Source: a virus (taxonomy: Duplodnaviria > Caudoviricetes). Taken from it: DNA of 64,000 nt. The position numbers were made by a program, and so were the translations under genes. Positions 1-47,629 of the stretch are shown piece by piece; the stretch's first letter is position 1, and the number at the start of each line of letters is the position of its first letter. The DNA is taken from the IMG/VR virus record IMGVR_UViG_3300031998_000004. One strand, written 5' to 3'. The notes under the pieces are model-generated. The model saw nothing but the letters and a program-made list of their open reading frames with translations. It had not been told where the DNA came from and did not search any database.

Positions 1-74
1 ACCGATAGGTAGACTCGAACTACCAACGACGGTCTTATGAGAACCGCGCTCTTATCCAGTTGAGCTATATCGGC
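1..74 (-). tRNA. tRNA with CAT anticodon (Met or Ile2); 3' end at the window edge
   Basis: Cloverleaf GCCGATA...TATCGGT, anticodon loop CT-CAT-AA, T-loop GTTCGAGTC. Confidence 0.9.
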
Positions 75-82
75 ATATGAAA

Positions 83-198
83 AAGAATAGTGTTTTCTCC
101 TTTATCTTATCACAACGCTATCTCAAGCGAACTATCCCTGATCAGTCTGACTCCTTGCTGTGTCGGGAGGTGGTTGTCGATCCACCATCTCTATTCTT
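83..198 (-). ncRNA. Putative structured RNA directly upstream of the CAT tRNA
   Basis: Closing stem AAGAATAG/CTATTCTT encloses a GGTGG-ATCGACAA-CCACC hairpin and further short stems. Confidence 0.35.
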
Positions 199-206
199 AA
201 TCGGTT

Positions 207-464
207 TTATTCGTTCTTTGGAGCTCCAGAATCTACATTTTCTGTATCTTTGGCTTCTTCGTTGACCTTAACCTGAGCTTCCTTGAAAGCCTTCATCACA
301 GCCGCACTCCTGGTATCCATCTTATAGTGCTGGATGACCTTTCCGTCTGGAGTAATCTGAATGTGGTCCTTCTGCATACCGCGGTGACGAATTTTGTTAA
401 TCCTGTGACTCCTGGAATCTTTTGTTCCCTGTGTCTTTGCGACACTTCTTTTGCTTGCGTACAT
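207..464 (-). CDS. Hypothetical basic protein, 85 aa
   Basis: ORF co-directional with its neighbours. Confidence 0.6.
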   Translation of the reverse strand: MYASKRSVAKTQGTKDSRSHRINKIRHRGMQKDHIQITPDGKVIQHYKMDTRSAAVMKAFKEAQVKVNEEAKDTENVDSGAPKNE

Positions 465-4413: not shown

Positions 4414-5624
4414 ATCAAATCAAATGTTAAATTAAATCCAACTTCGGTTGGACCAAAATAGTTCATATTAAATCGTCTTGGAACAAAGTCACTAGCTCGT
4501 AAGTACCAGTTATAATAGTATTTAGTATCCCATGGCTGAGAGGCGTGATAGGCATCAAACCTCGTATTAAACCATCCAATCCGACCATACAACTCAAACT
4601 TCCATCTCGGGTGTTTCTTACATTGGAATACATATCCGTATCCCAATCCACATCCATATACTTCTCCTTGATATCCCAGGTCTTTGTTCCAAGCGCAGAA
4701 GTCATAGATAGCGGTATTTGCATAAACTCCAATCCAATGCCCTGTGTACTTGTTATTAAGATATTTTCGGATACCCGCGATTCCATTCAAGAGTTGATAG
4801 TAGAAGTAACTGTCATAATCCTTATGCCACCAAGGGAACGTATAATCAAACTCAAGACTCAACCCCCACAGGTGTGTGTAGAGTTCTGCTTGGACGTTTG
4901 GTGTGATTGCAAGATCGCTCAAAAGATTCGTTTTAACAGCGAGTATTGGGATAACCTTAAGGTTTGGTCGAATTAGGATTGTATCGCGAAAATAGATAGG
5001 TTTTTGGATGAATATAGTATCGTGTTTGAGCTCGGTTAAGATTATAGTGTCTCTTTCGATTTCTTTCATCACTTCCTTTATCACTACCGTGTCTCTTTCA
5101 ATCTCTTTTATGACTTGTGGATATAAGAAATACACCTTAATATCAATTCTTCTGAGTCGTGGGAAGTACTTTTGATTAAGCTCTTTCCAATAGCCAGACC
5201 GAATAAGATCGTGTTTGACATCGTTGCTTGTAGAGAGAATCTTTAAGATTTTACCCTTCCAAGGTTCATTACTCGCTTCAATCAACTTATACAGCCCATC
5301 ATAGTCTTCCGATATAGTTATCTCGTCATCAAGATTCAATATATCACGAACCGCATCAACACGTCCTTGAGCGAGTGCTCGGTTGCCTGAATAAGTACCT
5401 TCTGGTGAAGCAGTACCTGTGATTTTAATATATTTGATGTCGTCTTGATGTTCTTGGATGAACGGGAGTTGACTATTGACGAACTCTTGATAGTTTTCAT
5501 CCTGGATGAACTCTGTAGTGTTGACTTTGAAGTAAAGTGTTGATGTCACTACGGTATCCCGTTGTTGGCTGTATCCGAGCCAACACATACAAAGTAAGGA
5601 CAATATGAGTAGAAGTCTGCGCAT
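4386..5624 (-). CDS. OmpA-like plus DUF3575 outer-membrane protein
   Basis: Signal peptide, GTASPEG..N..LA..R, AVKTNLL, C-terminal YFGPT. Confidence 0.8.
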   Translation of the reverse strand: MRRLLLILSLLCMCWLGYSQQRDTVVTSTLYFKVNTTEFIQDENYQEFVNSQLPFIQEHQDDIKYIKITGTASPEGTYSGNRALAQGRVDAVRDILNLDDEITISEDYDGLYKLIEASNEPWKGKILKILSTSNDVKHDLIRSGYWKELNQKYFPRLRRIDIKVYFLYPQVIKEIERDTVVIKEVMKEIERDTIILTELKHDTIFIQKPIYFRDTILIRPNLKVIPILAVKTNLLSDLAITPNVQAELYTHLWGLSLEFDYTFPWWHKDYDSYFYYQLLNGIAGIRKYLNNKYTGHWIGVYANTAIYDFCAWNKDLGYQGEVYGCGLGYGYVFQCKKHPRWKFELYGRIGWFNTRFDAYHASQPWDTKYYYNWYLRASDFVPRRFNMNYFGPTEVGFNLTFDLICGRKLYWD

Positions 5625-5638
5625 TTATATAAAATATA

Positions 5639-5665
5639 AGGATTCTTAAATAACTTTAAGAATCC
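5639..5665 (-). terminator. Hairpin closing tRNA operon 1
   Basis: GGATTCTTAAA/TTTAAGAATCC inverted repeat. Confidence 0.6.
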
Positions 5666-5669
5666 CGCG

Positions 5670-5741
5670 AGCCCCTGAGAAGAATCGAACTCCCATTTGA
5701 TGATTACGAAACATCCGTACTAGCCGTTATACTACAAGGGC
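5670..5741 (-). tRNA. tRNA-Thr(CGT)
   Basis: Cloverleaf, loop TT-CGT-AA. Confidence 0.9.
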
Positions 5742-5744
5742 ATT

Positions 5745-5820
5745 TGGTAGCAGTGGAACGACTCGAACGTTCAACCGACAACTTCAGAGGCTGCTGCTCT
5801 ACCAATTGCGCTACACTGCT
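5745..5820 (-). tRNA. tRNA-Gln(CTG), CCA encoded
   Basis: Cloverleaf, loop CT-CTG-AA. Confidence 0.9.
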
Positions 5821-5825
5821 ATCTG

Positions 5826-5899
5826 AGCAATCAACCGGGATCGAACCGATGTCTTATCCATACCAAGGATATGTTCTCGACCTGCTAAACTATGACTGC
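5826..5899 (-). tRNA. tRNA-Thr(GGT)
   Basis: Cloverleaf, loop TT-GGT-AT. Confidence 0.9.
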
Positions 5900-5902
5900 A
5901 TA

Positions 5903-6002
5903 AAATAGTTGGAAGAGTGTTTGCTATAGACATTGACGATATGTTCTATATAATTTGTCAAAGAGGCTCTTATCGTATATTCGTCTACTATCCTAACTAT
6001 TT
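5903..6002 (-). ncRNA. Putative non-tRNA structured RNA inside the tRNA array
   Basis: Terminal stem AAATAGTT(A)GGA/TCCAACTATTT; no T-loop. Confidence 0.35.
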
Positions 6003-6003
6003 G

Positions 6004-6074
6004 TACCCGGTAGAAGATTCGAACTCCTATGATCAGATCCGTATTCTGAAATCCTTCCATTGAATGAACCGGGC
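6004..6074 (-). tRNA. tRNA-Arg(ACG)
   Basis: Cloverleaf, anticodon stem TCAGA/TCTGA. Confidence 0.9.
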
Positions 6075-6102
6075 ATTAACCTATTGATTATTAATTACTT
6101 AG

Positions 6103-6177
6103 GGAGAAAGACGGGACTCGAACCCGCATAAACTACATCCACAGTGTAGTGCCTAAACCAATTCGGCCACCTCCTCC
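6103..6177 (-). tRNA. tRNA-His(GTG)
   Basis: Cloverleaf, G-1/C73, loop CT-GTG-GA. Confidence 0.9.
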
Positions 6178-6183
6178 ATGTAG

Positions 6184-6257
6184 TCGAGAGACCCAGATTC
6201 GAACTGGGATTGGATCGGTATCAGCGATCTAGCCTTGACCTGTTAGCTGATCTCTCG
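6184..6257 (-). tRNA. tRNA-Ile(GAT)
   Basis: Cloverleaf, loop CT-GAT-AC. Confidence 0.9.
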
Positions 6258-6263
6258 AATTTG

Positions 6264-6335
6264 CAGGAGTTACAGGACTCGAACCCATATCGTTTGATTT
6301 GGAGTCAAAAATGCTAACCATTACACCAAACTCCT
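6264..6335 (-). tRNA. tRNA-Trp(CCA)
   Basis: Cloverleaf, loop CT-CCA-AA. Confidence 0.92.
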
Positions 6336-6361
6336 GTATAACCTATTGATTATCAATGTAG

Positions 6362-6433
6362 TGCAGGTAACCGGAATCGAACCGACATCTCAGGAGTGGA
6401 AGTCCTATACACTAGCCGTTGTGCTATACCTGC
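6362..6433 (-). tRNA. tRNA-Gly(TCC)
   Basis: Cloverleaf, loop CT-TCC-AC. Confidence 0.9.
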
Positions 6434-6443
6434 AATTTATTCG

Positions 6444-6515
6444 AGCAGCATACTGGTAACGCTCCAGCGTCTCGACATTGGCAATGTCGCATAATTACTT
6501 TTATACGAATGCTGC
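6444..6515 (-). tRNA. tRNA-Gly(GCC) with non-canonical D and T loops
   Basis: Acceptor GCAGCAT/ATGCTGC, loop TT-GCC-AA, T-loop AGCGTTA. Confidence 0.8.
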
Positions 6516-6520
6516 TTAGG

Positions 6521-6606
6521 AGTCTGGGATAGGACTCGAACCTACGTAAGTCATTGACTATCAACGGTTTTGCAGACCGCCTCCTGACCAACTCGGACAC
6601 CCAGAC
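6521..6606 (-). tRNA. tRNA-Cys(GCA) with a long variable arm
   Basis: GTCTGGG/CCCAGAC with U73, loop CT-GCA-AA, extra arm TGATAGTCAATGACTTAC. Confidence 0.85.
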
Positions 6607-6623
6607 ATAATATTTCAAAGATC

Positions 6624-6659
6624 AAAAAAAATCACCCGAACTATCTCAGCTCAAGCGAT
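6624..6659 (-). terminator. Attenuator terminator of tRNA operon 1
   Basis: ATCGCTTGAGCT-gagat-AGTTCGGGTGAT (12 bp including G-U pairs) followed by a T-run. Confidence 0.85.
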
Positions 6660-6694
6660 CTCGTTTTATATGCGTAAAATTATTTTCTGAGACC

Positions 6695-6772
6695 TTACTT
6701 GAGCATAGTAGTGCGACCACACCAACCTTGATGCTGTCCGCGAATACCGATATGTCCAATGTTTGTTCTCAT
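6695..6772 (-). CDS. Putative attenuator leader peptide MRTNIGHIGIRGQHQGWCGRTTMLK
   Basis: 25 sense codons; codon content matches the downstream tRNAs; 3' end overlaps the antiterminator strand. Confidence 0.8.
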   Translation of the reverse strand: MRTNIGHIGIRGQHQGWCGRTTMLK

Positions 6773-6803
6773 GTTATTATAATACAAAATATCTCTTAAA
6801 AAT

Positions 6804-7346
6804 TTAAACCTTCATATACTTTTTTATTATATCTTGTGCTTTTTTAGAGATTGTTCCAGGAATATATTCAAGTCCACTATCCCAACCAGCATCTTCAAGC
6901 TTCTTTATTGATGATCTACCATCACCAATACTTAACCATTTAATATATGGGTCCCAGTTAAAACATATATCAAAGTCGTTTGCATCATCTATGTCAGTAA
7001 GTGAAAATGTATATTGTCTTCCATTGCATATCTCTTGTGCTTCGTGACGCATGTATATTGTCTCGGGGCAGAGAATATAAATATCATAGTTATCAATATC
7101 TTCAACCGCAATATCTTCAACCGCAACTATACAATCGTCTTCATTATATACTACTTCATATTCATCATCAAGGTCTCCAAGAGTCACATTCGACTTATTA
7201 CCAAAGTACTTCTTACGCCTCTTCTGGTAGTACTCTTCACACTTCTTCCAATCGGGTTCATAGATAGTCACACCGTTGATTTTGATAGCAGATTTGATAT
7301 TGTCATTAAAGACTCCTTCGTTTATAAATTCACTTAAACTTTTCAT
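6804..7346 (-). CDS. MKSL-family hypothetical protein (putative internal virion protein)
   Basis: N-terminus MKSLSEFINE. Confidence 0.7.
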   Translation of the reverse strand: MKSLSEFINEGVFNDNIKSAIKINGVTIYEPDWKKCEEYYQKRRKKYFGNKSNVTLGDLDDEYEVVYNEDDCIVAVEDIAVEDIDNYDIYILCPETIYMRHEAQEICNGRQYTFSLTDIDDANDFDICFNWDPYIKWLSIGDGRSSIKKLEDAGWDSGLEYIPGTISKKAQDIIKKYMKV

Positions 7347-7349
7347 ATC

Positions 7350-7784
7350 TTACCATCTTTTCCATTCATCCCAACCACGTTGAGTAACACCTTTCTGATC
7401 CTGAGGAAGAGCACCGCTTTCGTAGAACTCTTTACTTACATGTACTCTTTTTTCTCCATACTTAACTGTATTTAAATACATCCAATACTTATCATCACCA
7501 ATTCTGTATCCTTTGACTGTTCCAAATCCTGGTAGCATGTCTTGCTCTACATCTAGTCCATCAACCTTTTTACAGTAGTTGATGATTCTAGCATAAAGAT
7601 TTCGTCCATCTTTAACTGTTACCGTCGAAGGATTTATCTCATACCACTCTCTACTACTTCCCTGATAGTCACGGCAAAGAGCAACCCCGTCTCCGAAGAA
7701 CTTCTTAATTACATAAGCAAGTTTCTCGGGAACTATTTTACTTTTGACGTTATCTGTAAAGAGACTTTCTTGTAGTGATTTCAT
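7350..7784 (-). CDS. MKSL-family hypothetical protein
   Basis: N-terminus MKSLQESLF. Confidence 0.7.
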   Translation of the reverse strand: MKSLQESLFTDNVKSKIVPEKLAYVIKKFFGDGVALCRDYQGSSREWYEINPSTVTVKDGRNLYARIINYCKKVDGLDVEQDMLPGFGTVKGYRIGDDKYWMYLNTVKYGEKRVHVSKEFYESGALPQDQKGVTQRGWDEWKRW

Positions 7785-9064
7785 ACTAAACTTTCTTGTA
7801 AGGATTTTGGTTTCATAGTGTATTTACTATAACCAATGATACGGTTGAGTGGAACGAATCCACCAGTCCACTTCATCATCTTGCCTTTATAACTGAATAC
7901 TATACCTTCGGCACTTCTGAGATTCTCTTCACCAATCTCCCTTAAAACATCTAACCACTTCTGTAAGAATTCGTTATCTTCGAGAGAACCTTCCCTTCTG
8001 ATCTTTTCGGTGGCAACTTTCAAATCACCAAGAAGACTCTTGATGGTTCCATCTTGCCCGTCATTAACAAAACCACTGGTCACTTTAATAACATCAGCAC
8101 CCATACTATAGAAGAAATTTTGAAGTGGTGTGAGTACAGTATTAACTACTTTACTAGATGTCTTATCAAGTTTAACAAAACCATCAAGATTATCCTGATA
8201 TATTGCTTTGAGGTCCTTGAGAGATGCAGCTGTCTTATCTCCAAACACCCATCTCCTACAACAATCCATTGCTGCTTTATGATCCTCGCCTAACCACGGT
8301 TCATATTTCTCAACCCATTTAAAGAAGAGACTATATTTGAGACCTTCTATAGTAACATCTGGAGCACAATCGCATTGTTTTAAGAACTTCTGCCACTCAC
8401 CCAACCATTTCTTTTCGAGTTTTGCAGTTTCCTCACTATACTTAATGATAACAGGAGGAGTGATCTTCGCATTGTCGATTCCCTCACAAGCCTTTTCCAA
8501 CACATCTAGTCCTTTCTTGGTTACTTCTGTATTCTTCCATTCACTATCACTTTCTTGTTTTTCGTATATCCATATATTATGAAAGTCTACTTGATCAGAA
8601 GGATAGGGAATAGTATTTGTAGTTCCTGCAAGGATACATTCGCAGTTAACAACAAGTCTCTTAAGGGGCGATGGATTAAACCACTCTGGTCCGATCTTCC
8701 TAAACACAGCTTCAATGATCTTACCACCACGCGTGTAGTTATCAAGAGCATGGGGATTCTCCTTCCATTGTTCTGCAAAATCACTTAATGTCATTCCACC
8801 TTTCTCACTATTGAGATTGGTTTTATTGCGAATGAATACGACATCCCCTTTAGGATTCATACTTGCTTGCATACCAAATCCATCCATCTTCTCTGTCATA
8901 CCTTCCATCTTGCCCCCGAACATGGTACGGATAAGTTCTTCGATATCATATCCAGTAAACTCATCCACATCATATGGATGGAGCATATGTCCACTTGCTC
9001 CACCTTCAAGAACTGGCTCATTAATAGATAGTCTTTCTGTAAAATATTGTGAAAAGTGTTTCAT
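7781..9064 (-). CDS. DUF6267-like conserved T4-type phage protein with a ligase-like KxDG motif
   Basis: EGGASGHMLHPYD, TEKMDG, EGIVF...KWTG. Confidence 0.65.
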   Translation of the reverse strand: MKHFSQYFTERLSINEPVLEGGASGHMLHPYDVDEFTGYDIEELIRTMFGGKMEGMTEKMDGFGMQASMNPKGDVVFIRNKTNLNSEKGGMTLSDFAEQWKENPHALDNYTRGGKIIEAVFRKIGPEWFNPSPLKRLVVNCECILAGTTNTIPYPSDQVDFHNIWIYEKQESDSEWKNTEVTKKGLDVLEKACEGIDNAKITPPVIIKYSEETAKLEKKWLGEWQKFLKQCDCAPDVTIEGLKYSLFFKWVEKYEPWLGEDHKAAMDCCRRWVFGDKTAASLKDLKAIYQDNLDGFVKLDKTSSKVVNTVLTPLQNFFYSMGADVIKVTSGFVNDGQDGTIKSLLGDLKVATEKIRREGSLEDNEFLQKWLDVLREIGEENLRSAEGIVFSYKGKMMKWTGGFVPLNRIIGYSKYTMKPKSLQESLV

Positions 9065-10029
9065 TACTTAAGATCTTTAAATTTAGCCCCATTAAGGAGA
9101 ATATTGAGTGCGGATCCTGTATTTGCTGGAGCCGCGTCATCAGGTCCAGTTATCCCAGCACGATCAGTCTGTGGCATAACAGGACGTGGTGCTGCCCATG
9201 AAGGAGGAGTCTGTTTACGAGAAACAAATATGTCTCTATTCTTCTCTACAAGTTTGCCAATATCTTCTGCAGATTTGACATCTACACCAGCATCATTCAA
9301 ATACTTAATTGCATCTGCAAGTATATTATCGTGTCCTTTGAAAAGTTCTACAACGCGCTTTGCAAGCTTATCACCTTTAAGAGCGGAACCAAAGATATTG
9401 TTTTGAGGAGCAGCCTTACCAACAGGAAGTTTTCCTCCGTCCCCTTTATTAGGTTTACTATCATCACCAATAATAGCTGCAATCATTCCCTGAACTATTT
9501 TAAGAAAATCCTGCACAGGCTCAGGGCCTTCAACCACCATACAACTAACATGAGCATCTGGATTCATAAGTCCGACCTGACTCCATCTGTGATGACCATC
9601 AATAATCCAGTTTTTACCTTTATCCTTATATACAAGCACAGGTACTGCAAAGTTTGCTCCAAAAGCACTACCATCAAACATCTGTGGAATACATCTTACT
9701 CCCCAGTCCTTCGTCGCCCACTTTGCCGAGTTCTCAATATCGATTTCTGATTGTGTAGGATAGAGGTCTGCACAAGAGATACTCTGGCCAGGAGAGGCTG
9801 TATATTTCTTTCCTTCCTCATTCTGTCCGTCAAAGAGGTCTTTAAGAGCAGCCATCCAAAGTTTAGTATTATCTCCACTCTGTGTCTTTCCAAGAATCTT
9901 ATTTAGTTCATCAACAAAAACCTTCAAGTTGCCTTTCTTACTAAGGTCCTGAAGCATTTTATCACTGAGTTCTTTAACGTCTTCTGATTTTTCAAGCTTT
10001 TCAATTATATATTGTACAAGATGTTTCAT
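9064..10029 (-). CDS. ParB/Srx-like domain protein
   Basis: LYPTQSEID and WIIDGHHRW motifs. Confidence 0.7.
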   Translation of the reverse strand: MKHLVQYIIEKLEKSEDVKELSDKMLQDLSKKGNLKVFVDELNKILGKTQSGDNTKLWMAALKDLFDGQNEEGKKYTASPGQSISCADLYPTQSEIDIENSAKWATKDWGVRCIPQMFDGSAFGANFAVPVLVYKDKGKNWIIDGHHRWSQVGLMNPDAHVSCMVVEGPEPVQDFLKIVQGMIAAIIGDDSKPNKGDGGKLPVGKAAPQNNIFGSALKGDKLAKRVVELFKGHDNILADAIKYLNDAGVDVKSAEDIGKLVEKNRDIFVSRKQTPPSWAAPRPVMPQTDRAGITGPDDAAPANTGSALNILLNGAKFKDLK

Positions 10030-10044
10030 GGATAAATAATCATC

Positions 10045-10074
10045 AAAAAAGGACCTCCCTTAAAGAGATCCTTT
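10045..10074 (-). terminator. Intrinsic terminator closing tRNA operon 2
   Basis: AAGGATCTC...GAGGTCCTT followed by a T-run. Confidence 0.7.
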
Positions 10075-10076
10075 CG

Positions 10077-10154
10077 TGGTAGCCCGGGTGGGATTCGAAC
10101 CCACATCTTTTTCGCTTTTGAGGCGAACACGTCTCCCAGTTGCGTCACCGGGCC
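10077..10154 (-). tRNA. tRNA-Leu(CAA), short variable loop, CCA encoded
   Basis: Cloverleaf, loop CT-CAA-AA. Confidence 0.88.
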
Positions 10155-10160
10155 ATTATA

Positions 10161-10664
10161 CTATTTCTTCACAACCCAGTCAGCAAGAGTAGTGATAAGA
10201 GGACCGAAGGTCTTATAACGAACCTCGAATCCATATGACTCAAGCCATCCCTTTGAAGAAGCATAAGCTACATTGGAGCCAGCGTCTTCACGTGGGTTGA
10301 TATCAATGTCTATGTAACGGACAGGAACACCGCTTTCACGAATCCTCATGGCGACATCAAGTGATGCCTGCGTCTCAGCAGTCATTCTATCGAAGATTTC
10401 GGTCTTCTTGTAGCGTCTGGTCTTCCAACGACTGAACACACAGTGAGCGCCGTGCCCGTGTCCATCCCCATCACCTTTGTCATACATAGCGACTATAGTT
10501 GAGAATACAGTGTATGGTCCTTTGTTCTGTGAGTCGGTTCCAACCATCACATCAATATTCTGGTGGGTACTGTAGTACTCTTTCACATACTGCTCAATGT
10601 TGTCTAGCTTCTCTCCAGTAAACTTCTTAAATGAGAAAGCTCCATTTATCTTCTCTTGTTCCAT
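10161..10664 (-). CDS. RNase H-like YkuK/DUF458 family protein
   Basis: VGTDSQ, E...S, IDIDIN, ADW motifs. Confidence 0.8.
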   Translation of the reverse strand: MEQEKINGAFSFKKFTGEKLDNIEQYVKEYYSTHQNIDVMVGTDSQNKGPYTVFSTIVAMYDKGDGDGHGHGAHCVFSRWKTRRYKKTEIFDRMTAETQASLDVAMRIRESGVPVRYIDIDINPREDAGSNVAYASSKGWLESYGFEVRYKTFGPLITTLADWVVKK

Positions 10665-10687
10665 GACTATATTTATTTAATCTTTTG

Positions 10688-10776
10688 CGGAGAGCACTGG
10701 AGTCGAACCAGATCCGGGTTTTAACCGAACGAACCGCCTTCCAAACGGACGCCCTCACCGTCGGGCTTTACTCTCC
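10688..10776 (-). tRNA. tRNA-Ser(GGA)
   Basis: Type II cloverleaf, G73. Confidence 0.88.
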
Positions 10777-10785
10777 ATTATAATG

Positions 10786-10874
10786 CGGAAGAAGGAGGAG
10801 TCGAACCCCAAGCCTTGTTTAAGGGCTCAATCCGCTTTCGAGACGGTTTCGGTCACCGTTCCGATTCTTCTTCC
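10786..10874 (-). tRNA. tRNA-Ser(CGA)
   Basis: Type II cloverleaf, loop CT-CGA-AA. Confidence 0.9.
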
Positions 10875-10882
10875 AAACCGTG

Positions 10883-10966
10883 CGGAGGGAAGAGGAGTCG
10901 AACCCCAGCCCAAAAGGACCAATCCGCTTTCAAGACGGTTCCCATCTCCGTCAGGGTTTGCCCTCC
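10883..10966 (-). tRNA. tRNA-Ser(TGA)
   Basis: Type II cloverleaf, loop CT-TGA-AA. Confidence 0.9.
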
Positions 10967-10975
10967 ACAGTGTTG

Positions 10976-11066
10976 CGGTGGGAGTGGGGCTCGAACCCAC
11001 GCGCCGGGTTTTAACCGACCTAACGGTTTAGCAAACCGTCCCCTTCACCAACTTGGGTATCCCACC
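10976..11066 (-). tRNA. tRNA-Ser(GCT)
   Basis: Type II cloverleaf, loop TT-GCT-AA. Confidence 0.92.
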
Positions 11067-11073
11067 GGGTACT

Positions 11074-11409
11074 TTATATCTCTTTATTCTGTAACATCCT
11101 CAGAGCTTCACGAGTACCAGGACATTTGTCATTGACATAGTCTTCATCGAATGCCCCGTTCTTGTCCCAACAAGCTTCTACGATTGCAATGTTGGAAACA
11201 ATCACACCATCGATATTTTTACTCAGACCTTTGATCGCGGGTGTGAGATCATCGATGTTGGCCGGTTTCTCTCGCCCGACTAGCCAGACTTCATTGTGTC
11301 TGGTTACAACCTGACCCCATGTGACCTTGAAGATGTTTTTAAGGAACTCTCCTACCTGTGGCGTCTTCTTACCACGTTTTGAAATGATAATGCTGTAAAC
11401 GTTATACAT
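11074..11409 (-). CDS. Hypothetical protein, first gene after attenuator 2
   Basis: 111-aa ORF. Confidence 0.65.
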   Translation of the reverse strand: MYNVYSIIISKRGKKTPQVGEFLKNIFKVTWGQVVTRHNEVWLVGREKPANIDDLTPAIKGLSKNIDGVIVSNIAIVEACWDKNGAFDEDYVNDKCPGTREALRMLQNKEI

Positions 11410-11449
11410 ACTTAATGTTTTGTTTTTTGTTTATTGAGTTATATATAAC

Positions 11450-11478
11450 AAAAAAGAGCTGCATCTTTTGTGCAACTC
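11450..11478 (-). terminator. Attenuator terminator of tRNA operon 2
   Basis: GAGTTGCA-caaaaga-TGCAGCTC followed by a T-run. Confidence 0.85.
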
Positions 11479-11511
11479 CGAAAAAAATCACTCGTATACT
11501 AAATTGCACAA

Positions 11512-11577
11512 CTAACCGATAGTCCTATCGAGAGAACTACTCAATGACAATTCAATATTCGCATATGTTCTTTTCAT
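11512..11577 (-). CDS. Putative attenuator leader peptide MKRTYANIELSLSSSLDRTIG
   Basis: 21 sense codons with a TTG TCA TTG AGT AGT TCT CTC run; stop abuts the antiterminator strand. Confidence 0.8.
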   Translation of the reverse strand: MKRTYANIELSLSSSLDRTIG

Positions 11578-11581
11578 ATCC

Positions 11582-11657
11582 TGGAGCAGCACGCGAGATT
11601 CGAACTCGTACCTTAACCTTGGGAAGGTCATATGCTAACCACTAACACTAGTGCTGC
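11582..11657 (-). tRNA. tRNA-Gly(CCC), CCA encoded
   Basis: Cloverleaf, loop TT-CCC-AA. Confidence 0.9.
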
Positions 11658-11689
11658 ATTTATGTAACTTATTGATTATCAATCAAATG

Positions 11690-12115
11690 CGGAAGGTAAG
11701 AGATTCGAACTCCTGGGCCGCTCACGCGACCAACGGTTTTCCTTACACACATTCCTTTCGGATCGTGGTCTGGACTCTATCTTAACCATATTGAAATCTT
11801 GCAAGATACCTTTAGCAGTGTTCCAATACACTATATTAATTCGGACTGGATTTCTTTTTAACCGAACTAAAGATAATTTCAACTTAGGTTCCTCCTGTAT
11901 AGTCTCTACACACTGTCTAACTTATCGGTCTCACTACGTCAAGCTGGGAATTACTCCAACTCCGGACTTAAAAGTTTTAACATTGGCTCGGTATTACCAT
12001 CAGCATTACCTGTTAAGGTTCTACCGAATTAGGGAGGTTCTACTTCTTTTCTTTCAAAAAGAGCACTCGAATTAAAAATCAAGACCGCCGCTTTAGACCA
12101 CTCAGCCAACCTTCC
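11690..12115 (-). tRNA. tRNA-Ser(TGA) interrupted by a group I intron (exons 12115-12081 and 11751-11690)
   Basis: Joining GCGGTCTT and GAAAACCGT restores CT-TGA-AA; long variable arm; G73. Confidence 0.9.
11752..12080 (-). ncRNA. Group I self-splicing intron, about 329 nt, no ORF
   Basis: 5' exon ends in U and intron ends in G; core elements TGTAGAGACT and AAGATAGAGTCC. Confidence 0.88.
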
Positions 12116-45956: not shown

Positions 45957-47629
45957 TAGATAATCTTTACTTTCTGCATCTCGTCAGTTAACATATGACC
46001 ATTATTTGGATGAACTGTATATCCGAGTTTTGCAAGGGTATCCCGGTTAAGGAGCATGTTGGTGGTTTTCTTTTCACGACTCTTAACAATTGCAATATAT
46101 GGATTTTTAATTTTTCTTAAACCGAGTGTAAGTTCTTTAACCTGAATAACCGGTCTCTTATAAGTATCTTCCCCAGCCACCGCATTAATATCACGTTCTT
46201 TATCAAACGTCATATTCTTACCATCAATCGAGAATGTAACTTTACCATCAGTTTCTGTATACTCACCAACTTCAAGAGTACTTGCAAATGTACTATTACC
46301 CGTATCAAGTTTTGCAAGAAAACTCTTTTCTACTCCATCTTCGAATTTAACAGTAACCGCTTCTATAAATCCAGCAGTCTTATCTTGAAGCATAAACTCA
46401 CTCGGATCATCAAGTTCGTTGAGAAGGATACTTACGAAGTTCTCTTTAATAACATCACTGATACCATCAGTACCCGGGCTTGCATTGACCTCTAACACGA
46501 CATTATCACCGAGTTCTTTATTACTTCCTTTTACGAGCGGCATAATATCAACAGCACACCAAGGCATCTTTGTAAGAGTTGCGGTTTTGAGAGCGATTTG
46601 TTCCTGTTCTGGTGTGAGTTTTACTGGTTCTGCTGCAGCACCAAGACTCACGTTACTCCTAAAGTCATTAGCGATTTTTACACGTTTCATGGCCGCGAGT
46701 ATCACCTGTTTATTACGAAGAGTGAGAACATGTACACGGATATCCCCACCATCTGCTTCTTCCTTCTTCTGGAGAATAAGACGACGTTCAGGATCGATAG
46801 CAAATACAAGCTGTAACCAAGCAAGAATTTTCTTACCATCTATCATAGCTACGCCTGTTCCACCGTGACCATCAAGAATCTTACATACAAAAGTTAATTC
46901 TTCATTTTTGTCCGGATCTTTCTCATTCCATTGAGGATAAACATCCTTCATTGATTGATTATATTGCTTTTCATCATAAAGGATGTCTTTTGTCATCAAA
47001 CAGAATCGTGGTTGAGGAATCTCACCTTTTTCAAGTAAGCATGCAGTATCATACTTATCACAGGCAAGCGCAGCGTACTGAACAGGATTTAATACGAGGA
47101 ACCCGCGGTCCTGTAAGAGCTTAACAATATGCTCACACTGGTCTTCATCCTGAACACCAAGCCTACTGAATACGAGTGTATCGAGATTAGATTGTTCCTT
47201 AATAGTGAACTTTTCATCACCATCCGTCAACTCAATAGTCTCTTCGCGATCGTCCGCTACCATCTCAGCTGCAACAAACACATGGAGTTCGGGGACGATC
47301 TCTACGTGTTTCTTTTTGAGAGCGTCAATAGCATCTATGATATTCTTCAATGTCTTATTGTTCTTTGGATCACGATCATTAGTGAATACAATGATGTGTT
47401 TGAAGATGTTCTTCAATTCCTTGGGATGCTGATCTGCGTAGATGACTTCGAATTTATCGGGATTAACGGTTTTCTCTTCTTCGTTTTTCTTTTCGTGAGA
47501 TTCTTTATCTTTATCCTCCATTTTTTTGATTTCGGATTTCTTTTCTATAATCTCTGCAGGAACAAGGTTATATTCCTCGTTTAACTGTTCTACACAGCTT
47601 ATATTGCTATAGTCGATTCTTTTACTCAT
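45956..47629 (-). CDS. rimK: RimK-type ATP-grasp ligase fused to a retropepsin-like protease
   Basis: DK, GHGGTGV, DIRV, FRSNVSLG, AVD, EVNASPG; C-terminal AKLDTGN. Confidence 0.85.
   Translation of the reverse strand: MSKRIDYSNISCVEQLNEEYNLVPAEIIEKKSEIKKMEDKDKESHEKKNEEEKTVNPDKFEVIYADQHPKELKNIFKHIIVFTNDRDPKNNKTLKNIIDAIDALKKKHVEIVPELHVFVAAEMVADDREETIELTDGDEKFTIKEQSNLDTLVFSRLGVQDEDQCEHIVKLLQDRGFLVLNPVQYAALACDKYDTACLLEKGEIPQPRFCLMTKDILYDEKQYNQSMKDVYPQWNEKDPDKNEELTFVCKILDGHGGTGVAMIDGKKILAWLQLVFAIDPERRLILQKKEEADGGDIRVHVLTLRNKQVILAAMKRVKIANDFRSNVSLGAAAEPVKLTPEQEQIALKTATLTKMPWCAVDIMPLVKGSNKELGDNVVLEVNASPGTDGISDVIKENFVSILLNELDDPSEFMLQDKTAGFIEAVTVKFEDGVEKSFLAKLDTGNSTFASTLEVGEYTETDGKVTFSIDGKNMTFDKERDINAVAGEDTYKRPVIQVKELTLGLRKIKNPYIAIVKSREKKTTNMLLNRDTLAKLGYTVHPNNGHMLTDEMQKVKII

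Follow-up and report, generated by a model that had tools for sequence, protein, structure and literature searches.

Among the questions raised by phages that carry large sets of tRNA genes, a basic one concerns how these genes are regulated: to our knowledge, essentially nothing has been established about the control of phage tRNA genes, and we know of no tRNA genes placed under leader-peptide attenuation. We have addressed this question in a stretch of 64,000 nucleotides (the window), which is part of the virus record IMGVR_UViG_3300031998_000004 (Duplodnaviria; Caudoviricetes), a single contig of 239,809 bp with 37% G+C. About 40 tRNA genes are encoded in the record; they form four groups and all lie on the minus strand. 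One of these groups is a ten-gene array (6606-5669, minus strand), which runs in the order Cys-GCA, Gly-GCC, Gly-TCC, Trp-CCA, Ile-GAT, His-GTG, Arg-ACG, Thr-GGT, Gln-CTG and Thr-CGT, and which is preceded by a short open reading frame (ORF). A reading of the sequence by itself, here called the original prediction, had proposed that this ORF encodes the leader peptide of an attenuator whose codons mirror the tRNAs of the array. Judging from sequence comparison and modelled folding, we consider it likely that the element is a working leader-peptide (ribosome-mediated) transcription attenuator of the ten-gene tRNA operon, and that the phage probably makes the array tRNAs only when translation runs short of them.

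The elements on which this reading turns are listed below in the coordinates of the window.

6695..6772, minus strand: leader ORF of 25 sense codons plus TAA, with the ATG at 6772 and the stop at 6697-6695
6716..6760, minus strand: predicted sensing core, codons 5-19; in the window, the run of codons read by the array reaches codon 22 (6707)
6689..6771, minus strand: leader-internal hairpin (segments 1:2), formed by pairing between the two halves of the ORF, with codons 15-16 at the apex; minimum-energy fold
6689..6704, minus strand: segment 2, the predicted antiterminator strand, made of the last two sense codons, the stop and six more bases; complementary to 6662-6649
6649..6662, minus strand: segment 3, the 5' arm of the terminator, which can instead pair with segment 2
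6624..6662, minus strand: intrinsic-terminator-like hairpin (segments 3:4) plus eight T, from a terminator scan and folding

The ORF sequence is as originally quoted, and so is the list of ten tRNAs: ARAGORN with default settings detects nine of them, and Gly-GCC, which it misses, was added by Rfam (41.7 bits) and by ARAGORN under relaxed settings. Under standard wobble, the array reads a set of 18 codons, which make up 22.5% of the codons in the 182 long ORFs of the genome. From codon 5 to codon 22 of the leader, 17 of the 18 codons belong to this set, CAA being the sole non-match, and each of the array's eight amino acids occurs in the leader ORF, just as had been claimed. The core itself (codons 5-19) reads Ile, Gly, His, Ile, Gly, Ile, Arg/Cys, Gly, Gln, His/Arg, Gln, Gly, Trp, Cys, Gly. 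Chance was assessed over every 18-codon stretch of the 239.8 kb genome in the six frames (about 480,000 stretches), an approach that avoids a post hoc binomial calculation. The leader stretch is the single genome-wide maximum, with 17 matches, while the best stretch elsewhere reaches 14; this best match lies on the array's own strand, in an ATG-started frame, directly upstream of the array. At the amino-acid level, 20 of 24 leader residues belong to the array's set (P = 2e-7). The codon match is not a product of chance.

There are also hints that the leader is specific at the level of codons. Its Arg codons are CGC, which represents 8% of the Arg codons in genes, against 40% for AGA; CGC or CGT is used, not the AGA that the genome prefers. 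The Ile codons avoid ATA, and both Gln codons and both Gly codon pairs are represented. The sole exception, CAA, is codon 15 (6728-6730), and its presence is explained by the arrays of almost all relatives, where a Gln-TTG gene that has been lost in this phage sits between Trp and Ile. The retained CAA would be a relic, or else it would sense a tRNA of the host itself. As for the place of the lost gene, a 25-nt gap was noted at 6258-6262/6336-6360.

The elements of the predicted switch are likewise present, at the end of the ORF and beyond it. The end of the leader can indeed pair with 6662-6649, since the segment 6704-6689 is complementary to it; the 8-nt core of segment 2, GCUCAAGU, extends from the last sense codons into the first base of the stop and pairs 6704-6697 with 6656-6649. 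A terminator had been expected before the first tRNA, and we recover it as a hairpin at 6662-6628 followed by eight T to 6624, which ends 17 nt upstream of tRNA-Cys (6606). In ten aligned relatives, neither the GCUCAAGU core nor the bases complementary to it in the 5' arm of the terminator show any change. In 10 relatives, the 13 pairs of the terminator are 100% paired, with four pairs that vary on one side only, and the 1:2 hairpin keeps 96.7% of its cells paired, with changes that are all one-sided and wobble-compatible. As isolated elements, the three alternatives have energies of -16 to -26 kcal/mol (1:2), -14.5 to -22 kcal/mol (2:3) and -16 to -19 kcal/mol (3:4).

The effect of a stalled ribosome was modelled with transcripts cut just after segment 3, in which about 30 nt around the A site were kept single-stranded. 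The antiterminator forms with the A site at codons 1-18 (P >= 0.8 nearly always), is partially lost at codon 19 and is blocked from codon 20 to the stop. The conserved in-set core ends at codon 19, in agreement with this footprint limit; the agreement was not built into the test, and we rank it as the strongest mechanistic support that modelling lends to the attenuator. In the model, the predicted sensing stretch is about codons 2-19/20 and not codons 5-22, as the original prediction had it. Codons 21 and 22, both ACT, are probably not part of the sensor, and in relatives these positions hold non-array codons.

How this element has been kept in evolution was examined in relatives found through homologues of the 180-aa protein encoded just upstream, on contigs from several metagenomes; being anchored on a neighbouring gene, this sample is unbiased. 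All distinct relatives of this kind with the array (8/8) have the leader ORF, 166-205 nt upstream of tRNA-Cys, and a relative that has the neighbouring genes and no array at the syntenic place is missing the leader too. A pattern scan of metagenome contigs gave 4 further relatives with the leader, and all true matches adjoin a tRNA array. The attenuator architecture that had been proposed (leader ORF, antiterminator and terminator) is present and conserved in every relative with the array. By DNA similarity, the leader has no match elsewhere in the incomplete record G002, nor in the distant phage G001 described below, and a scan of viral contigs with a 14-nt core pattern returned chance matches only.

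The changes among relatives follow a clear pattern. Start, stop and frame are kept in 12 relatives, one of which has its stop changed from TAA to TGA, and the length is always 25 or 26 codons, the length variants being in-frame insertions of whole codons. Synonymous changes occur at codons 8, 11, 12, 15, 18 and 19, and amino-acid swaps of the core exchange chemically unlike residues that both belong to the array's set (Arg/Cys at 11, His/Arg at 14, Gly/Cys at 9, Gln/His at 15 and Ile/Thr at 5); changes out of the set in codons 5-19 amount to two single cases, Asn and Glu. From position 20 on, relatives have Asp, Ser, Asn, Ala, Leu and other codons. Such a pattern would be expected under selection on which tRNA reads each codon, not on the peptide, and it makes the leader resemble a translated ORF in which the class of each codon, and not the peptide sequence, has been selected. 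Nucleotide identity to the window is 83-91% in the leader ORF and 77-89% in the promoter-like stretch ahead of it (76-91% overall for the leader, terminator and promoter-like box), compared with 60-74% in the last 300 nt of the adjacent protein gene and 50-74% in the spacer between the stop and the terminator.

A leader that samples its own operon should differ wherever the array differs, and whether leader content tracks array content was the check proposed with the original prediction. The outcome is positive in G001, in the megaphage Lak-A1 and in two more units of the same genome, which together with a further viral contig carry the following leaders.

L182 4155-4244, minus strand: leader of 29 codons in G001 (IMGVR_UViG_3300045988_170375), with its own 1:2, 2:3 and 3:4 pairings
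L184 9739-9946, MK250015.1 about 108063-108270, plus strand: leader of 42 codons in Prevotella megaphage Lak-A1, followed by a 14-bp terminator
About 547-730 of L052 (IMGVR_UViG_3300038299_000184), plus strand: leader of 30 codons, rich in Ser, Trp, Cys and Val, in an apparently unrelated viral contig of 128 kb
11455..11577 of the window, minus strand: Leu/Ser sister element, with a 21-codon leader at 11577-11512 and a terminator at 11479-11455
G000:C1 46170-46105, minus strand: second leader of the same genome, 21 codons, in a unit at 46010-46225 (L144 about 10011-10226)

G001 is a distant complete phage of 283 kb, with a marker protein 42% identical and its tRNAs grouped differently. After its leader come the tRNAs Ile-GAT, Glu, Tyr, Asp, Gln-TTG, Ile-TAT, Asn, Ala and Thr-TGT, and leader codons 3-19 encode Thr, Tyr, Asn, Gln, Asp, Glu, Ala and Ile, the same eight amino acids; 16 of 17 codons belong to the set of its own array (P = 1.5e-5). 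No clear leader was seen at several other tRNA groups of G001. The leader of Lak-A1, rich in Gly, Met, His, Pro, Cys and Arg, precedes the tRNAs His, Pro, Arg, Arg, Gly, Cys and Met, with 21 of 41 residues in the set against a background of 17% (P = 7e-7) and a fold z of -5.8, values that come from one Lak genome. As a rough control, we used 17 tRNA arrays present in 120 viral loci fetched for another purpose: most upstream ORFs had no match to their array (P > 0.02), and that of L052 did match. The latter ORF lies about 100 nt upstream of the tRNAs Trp, Ser, Cys and Val, and the 5' arm of its terminator overlaps a strand complementary to the ORF end, so that it is probably a further instance of the design. 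A small ORF ahead of a suppressor/Ile/Pro/Cys/Lys array in L055 was rejected, as it has no terminator and lies within coding sequence.

Within the genome under study, the Leu/Ser leader stands directly after tRNA-Gly-CCC and upstream of Ser-GCT, Ser-TGA, Ser-CGA, Ser-GGA and Leu-CAA. It contains six consecutive Leu/Ser codons, all read by its own unit, which is one of 4 such stretches in the genome, and its stop is immediately followed by 11 nt complementary to the 5' arm of the terminator at 11479-11455. Its constrained folds give the 1:2 hairpin without a ribosome and a probability of the antiterminator of 0.87-0.99 for stalls at codons 3-15, which falls to 0.11 or less at codons 16-21. At the same site, relatives have a different Leu/Ser-rich leader with its own antiterminator and terminator. 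The second leader precedes an array of 20-odd tRNAs that begins with Pro and includes Phe, Glu, Leu, Tyr, Arg-CCT, Lys, Asp, Asn, Ala, Val and others, with a terminator about 10 nt before tRNA-Pro whose 5' arm is complementary to a conserved strand after the stop. It is kept in three relatives (L145, L146 and L147) and uses none of the codons of the other two leaders' sets. The protein encoded beside it had no relative in viral contigs, and its homologues came from a protein search. Each replicate has its own strand, adjacent to the stop or internal to the ORF, that is complementary to the 5' arm of its own terminator, and across these sequence-unrelated instances the content of the leader, as read from its codons, co-varies with the content of the array.

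Taken together with the modelled folds, these features suggest a mechanism in which transcription would start shortly upstream of the leader ATG and a ribosome would load on the short ORF. As long as all aminoacyl-tRNAs for its Ile, Gly, His, Arg/Cys, Gln, Trp and Cys codons are abundant, this ribosome would reach the stop and cover segment 2; the 3:4 terminator would then form, and the polymerase would halt 17 nt before tRNA-Cys. When any one of the sampled tRNAs is scarce, the ribosome would stall in codons 2-19 and leave segment 2 free, which would pair with segment 3 as soon as this is made, so that no terminator forms and the ten tRNAs are transcribed. The inputs would be about 18 codons, eight amino acids and nine of the ten isoacceptors, combined by OR logic. 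Because the leader samples the codons decoded by the operon's own tRNAs, the circuit would be a closed, self-limiting negative feedback on tRNA supply. We infer that the leader is translated, that termination takes place in vivo and that the response has this direction; the signal would be tRNA abundance and not amino-acid supply, and as a matter of speculation the trigger could be anticodon nucleases or the decay of host tRNAs.

The closest known counterpart is the trp operon of E. coli, where the short leader ORF trpL is followed by the alternative pairings 1:2, 2:3 and 3:4 with a U-tract, and where segment 2 is masked or free depending on whether the ribosome stands at the stop codon or has stalled on the regulatory codons. 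The phage element resembles trpL in its short leader ORF, its alternative segments, the masking at the stop and the release on stalling. It differs in that trpL controls biosynthesis genes and senses one amino acid through two Trp codons, whereas here the output is tRNAs and the input is about 15-18 consecutive codons for eight amino acids. The two share no sequence similarity. Multivalent leaders, in which the shortage of any one amino acid leads to read-through, are known from enterobacteria ahead of ilvGMEDA (ilvL: Ile, Val and Leu) and thr (thrL: Thr and Ile), but these have two or three inputs, as opposed to eight, and their outputs are amino-acid enzymes, not tRNAs that read the codons. 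The pheST attenuator, with its pheM leader, also controls a component of translation (an aminoacyl-tRNA synthetase) and senses tRNA charging, although it has a single amino-acid input, a protein product and a chromosomal, not viral, location. T-box riboswitches are terminator/antiterminator switches as well, through which the state of a specific tRNA governs translation-related genes; in contrast to the conserved ORF of translated type seen here, they bind uncharged tRNA directly, with no ribosome or ORF. Finally, leader-peptide attenuation has been predicted in the probable host phylum for the Bacteroid-trp leader motif of Rfam, which differs in being a Trp-codon leader ahead of trp genes.

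A search of 5400-12000 with Rfam cmscan at E values up to 1 returned tRNA-type matches and a few sub-threshold plastid UTR motifs; it gave no leader family (Trp_leader, His_leader, Leu_leader, Thr_leader or Bacteroid-trp) and no T-box. In the full-text literature, with most subscription journals outside coverage, we found no leader-peptide attenuator described ahead of tRNA genes, either in a phage or in a cell. What is seen in the sequence is a leader ORF, codons matched to the operon, an intrinsic-terminator-like hairpin before the first tRNA and an antiterminator strand that a ribosome at the stop would mask. By these sequence-level features the element would belong to the class of leader-peptide attenuators, and would be new in the genes it controls (tRNAs), in its number of inputs and in its viral setting. 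If this is true, it would be the first case of tRNA supply feeding back through the ribosome on the transcription of its own genes, and by far the most multivalent attenuator known. It would bear on why large phages have near-complete tRNA sets, either to replace degraded or cleaved host tRNAs or to match codon usage, and it would offer a compact natural sensor of tRNA availability, usable in reporters. Its presence in Lak megaphages, which come from the gut of humans and animals, suggests a wide distribution. We lean, by a small degree, towards a broader proposal, in which each tRNA operon of the tRNA-rich Bacteroidota phages, including Lak, would be gated by a codon-matched leader. These would form an undescribed class of closed-loop, many-input sensors of tRNA supply, switched on when any cognate tRNA becomes limiting; such a shortage could stem from the decay of host tRNAs, from anticodon-nuclease defences or from late genes and their codon demand.

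Among the alternatives, the nearest keeps the same attenuator and changes the signal: the leader would respond to amino-acid starvation through uncharged tRNA, and phage tRNA output would be tied to host nutrition. To a stalled ribosome, a missing tRNA and an uncharged one are indistinguishable, and the structural evidence fits both readings equally. However, extra tRNA could not relieve a lack of amino acids, which makes the sampling of the operon's own tRNAs hard to rationalise; moreover, the match holds at the level of isoacceptors (both Gln codons, both Gly pairs, and CGC/CGT instead of AGA), and leader and array co-vary across four phages. We regard starvation as an improbable signal.

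Two other readings dispense with attenuation altogether, and both seem to us far less credible than that. The ORF could encode a small functional peptide, with the hairpin acting as the terminator of the upstream unit and the likeness to the array being incidental; the peptide is strongly conserved, and a protein gene is located about 140-180 nt upstream of the hairpin. Yet the swaps Arg/Cys, His/Arg and Gly/Cys are non-conservative for a peptide and still remain in the array's set, the codon stretch is a genome-wide outlier linked to the adjoining tRNAs, and no variation is seen in the strand across the stop that can pair with the terminator arm. Each of four or five leaders unrelated in sequence fits its own tRNA set, and every true pattern match adjoins a tRNA array. 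Such a peptide is therefore a very unlikely explanation. Equally remote is an untranslated structured 5' leader, serving as a processing, pause or terminator element, whose frame and codon match would be by-products: the ORF region does form a long hairpin kept in relatives, and the whole leader region has a fold z of -2.3, but the start and stop are always kept, insertions comprise whole codons and third-position synonymous changes occur at six codons. Structure accounts neither for a frame whose codons are those of the array nor for the other leaders, which have other structures.

The attenuator itself also has to face several unfavourable observations. Equilibrium folding with the whole terminator gives the terminator at most stall positions; because equilibrium favours the terminator, the decision of the switch must be kinetic, and the usual co-transcriptional assumption carries the model. 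In classical attenuators, equilibrium folding likewise favours the terminator. Without a ribosome, the truncated leader of the ten-gene array folds mostly as 2:3, not 1:2, in most homologues, so that the limb of the model in which no translation leads to termination is unsupported by folding for this leader, and supported for the Leu/Ser one. There are no compensatory double changes in the helices, and covariation statistics equal those of shuffled controls; with so little variation in the helices, this test carries no information. For the variable extension of the antiterminator, the advantage over shuffled spacers is weak (mean z about -1). On the side of the codons, CAA has been kept in the leader although the phage lost Gln-TTG, and ACG, the codon of the array's Thr-CGT, is sampled by no leader. 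With 58-68% of all codons read by its own array, the second leader has a match to that array that falls short of significance, and the constrained folds of this leader give mixed results. Internal promoters are also conceivable.

The attenuator is flanked by two further conserved stretches.

6773..6808, minus strand: promoter-like stretch ahead of the leader ATG, with a TTAAATTTTT box and then a T-rich/TATTAT box; A/T-rich and without a Shine-Dalgarno sequence
6611..6621, minus strand: TCTTTGA(A/C)A element between the U-tract and tRNA-Cys, found after the terminator in every relative

The promoter-like stretch is almost invariant in 10 relatives, and a sigma-70-type scan matches at 6808-6779, which would place the start of transcription at or just before the ATG. 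The TTAAATTTTT box also occurs upstream of the second leader (G000:C1). The A/T-rich start context, without a Shine-Dalgarno sequence, is typical of this phage, where such a sequence was found at 12 of 182 genes. The TCTTTGA(A/C)A element, which we take to resemble the boxA of rRNA operons, appears again at 5965-5955, in a 103-nt gap inside the array, and its 13 copies in the genome represent a weak enrichment.

The array itself and the hairpin that closes it comprise the following genes and elements.

6519..6606, minus strand: tRNA-Cys (GCA), 88 nt, with a long variable arm (ARAGORN and Rfam)
6444..6515, minus strand: tRNA-Gly (GCC) (Rfam and relaxed ARAGORN, as above)
6361..6433, minus strand: tRNA-Gly (TCC) (ARAGORN and Rfam)
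6263..6335, minus strand: tRNA-Trp (CCA) (ARAGORN and Rfam)
6183..6257, minus strand: tRNA-Ile (GAT) (ARAGORN and Rfam)
6102..6176, minus strand: tRNA-His (GTG) (ARAGORN and Rfam)
6003..6074, minus strand: tRNA-Arg (ACG) (ARAGORN and Rfam)
5825..5899, minus strand: tRNA-Thr (GGT) (ARAGORN and Rfam)
5745..5820, minus strand: tRNA-Gln (CTG) (ARAGORN and Rfam)
5669..5741, minus strand: tRNA-Thr (CGT), the tRNA whose codon is absent from all leaders (ARAGORN and Rfam)
5639..5666, minus strand: terminator-like hairpin closing the tRNA unit (terminator scan)

The long variable arm of tRNA-Cys is class II-like, and the base after its acceptor stem is U. In relatives, this first tRNA-Cys ranges from 73 to 88 nt, with the leader unchanged. 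Downstream of the array lie genes encoding DUF3575 and Mfa-like fimbrillin domains. A blastn search against a phage collection gave matches at the level of tRNAs only, and the sole similar phage record was a Prevotella phage. Because of these neighbours, of that similar record and of genes without Shine-Dalgarno sequences, the host is probably a member of the Bacteroidales. Judging by their names, several of the records may come from rumen metagenomes.

Other observations concern the remaining tRNA groups of the genome. Upstream of the unit with three Met (CAT) and Arg-TCT (window 75-424), no convincing leader was seen. All three leaders of the genome start with ATG and have AGA within one codon, and these are the codons of the Met/Arg-TCT unit (window 1-424; G000:C1 85390-85918), which may be a coincidence. 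A 111-aa ORF and another protein gene are interleaved among the tRNAs of the Ser/Leu unit. The large array contains a suppressor-type tRNA with the anticodon TTA, which reads UAA (L144 9767-9840, minus strand, equivalent to G000:C1 45766-45839). TAA is the terminal codon of 132 of the 182 long ORFs and its read-through yields no obvious gain; a general recoding of TAA in this phage seems unlikely. Under relaxed settings, ARAGORN also proposes two tRNA genes with introns, a tRNA-Ser (TGA) with an intron of about 339 nt (window about 11689-12115, minus strand) and a tRNA-Lys (TTT) with an intron of 537 nt (L144 3833-4444, minus strand). A conserved stretch of more than 40 nt lies near both of them and looks like a shared group I-type intron.

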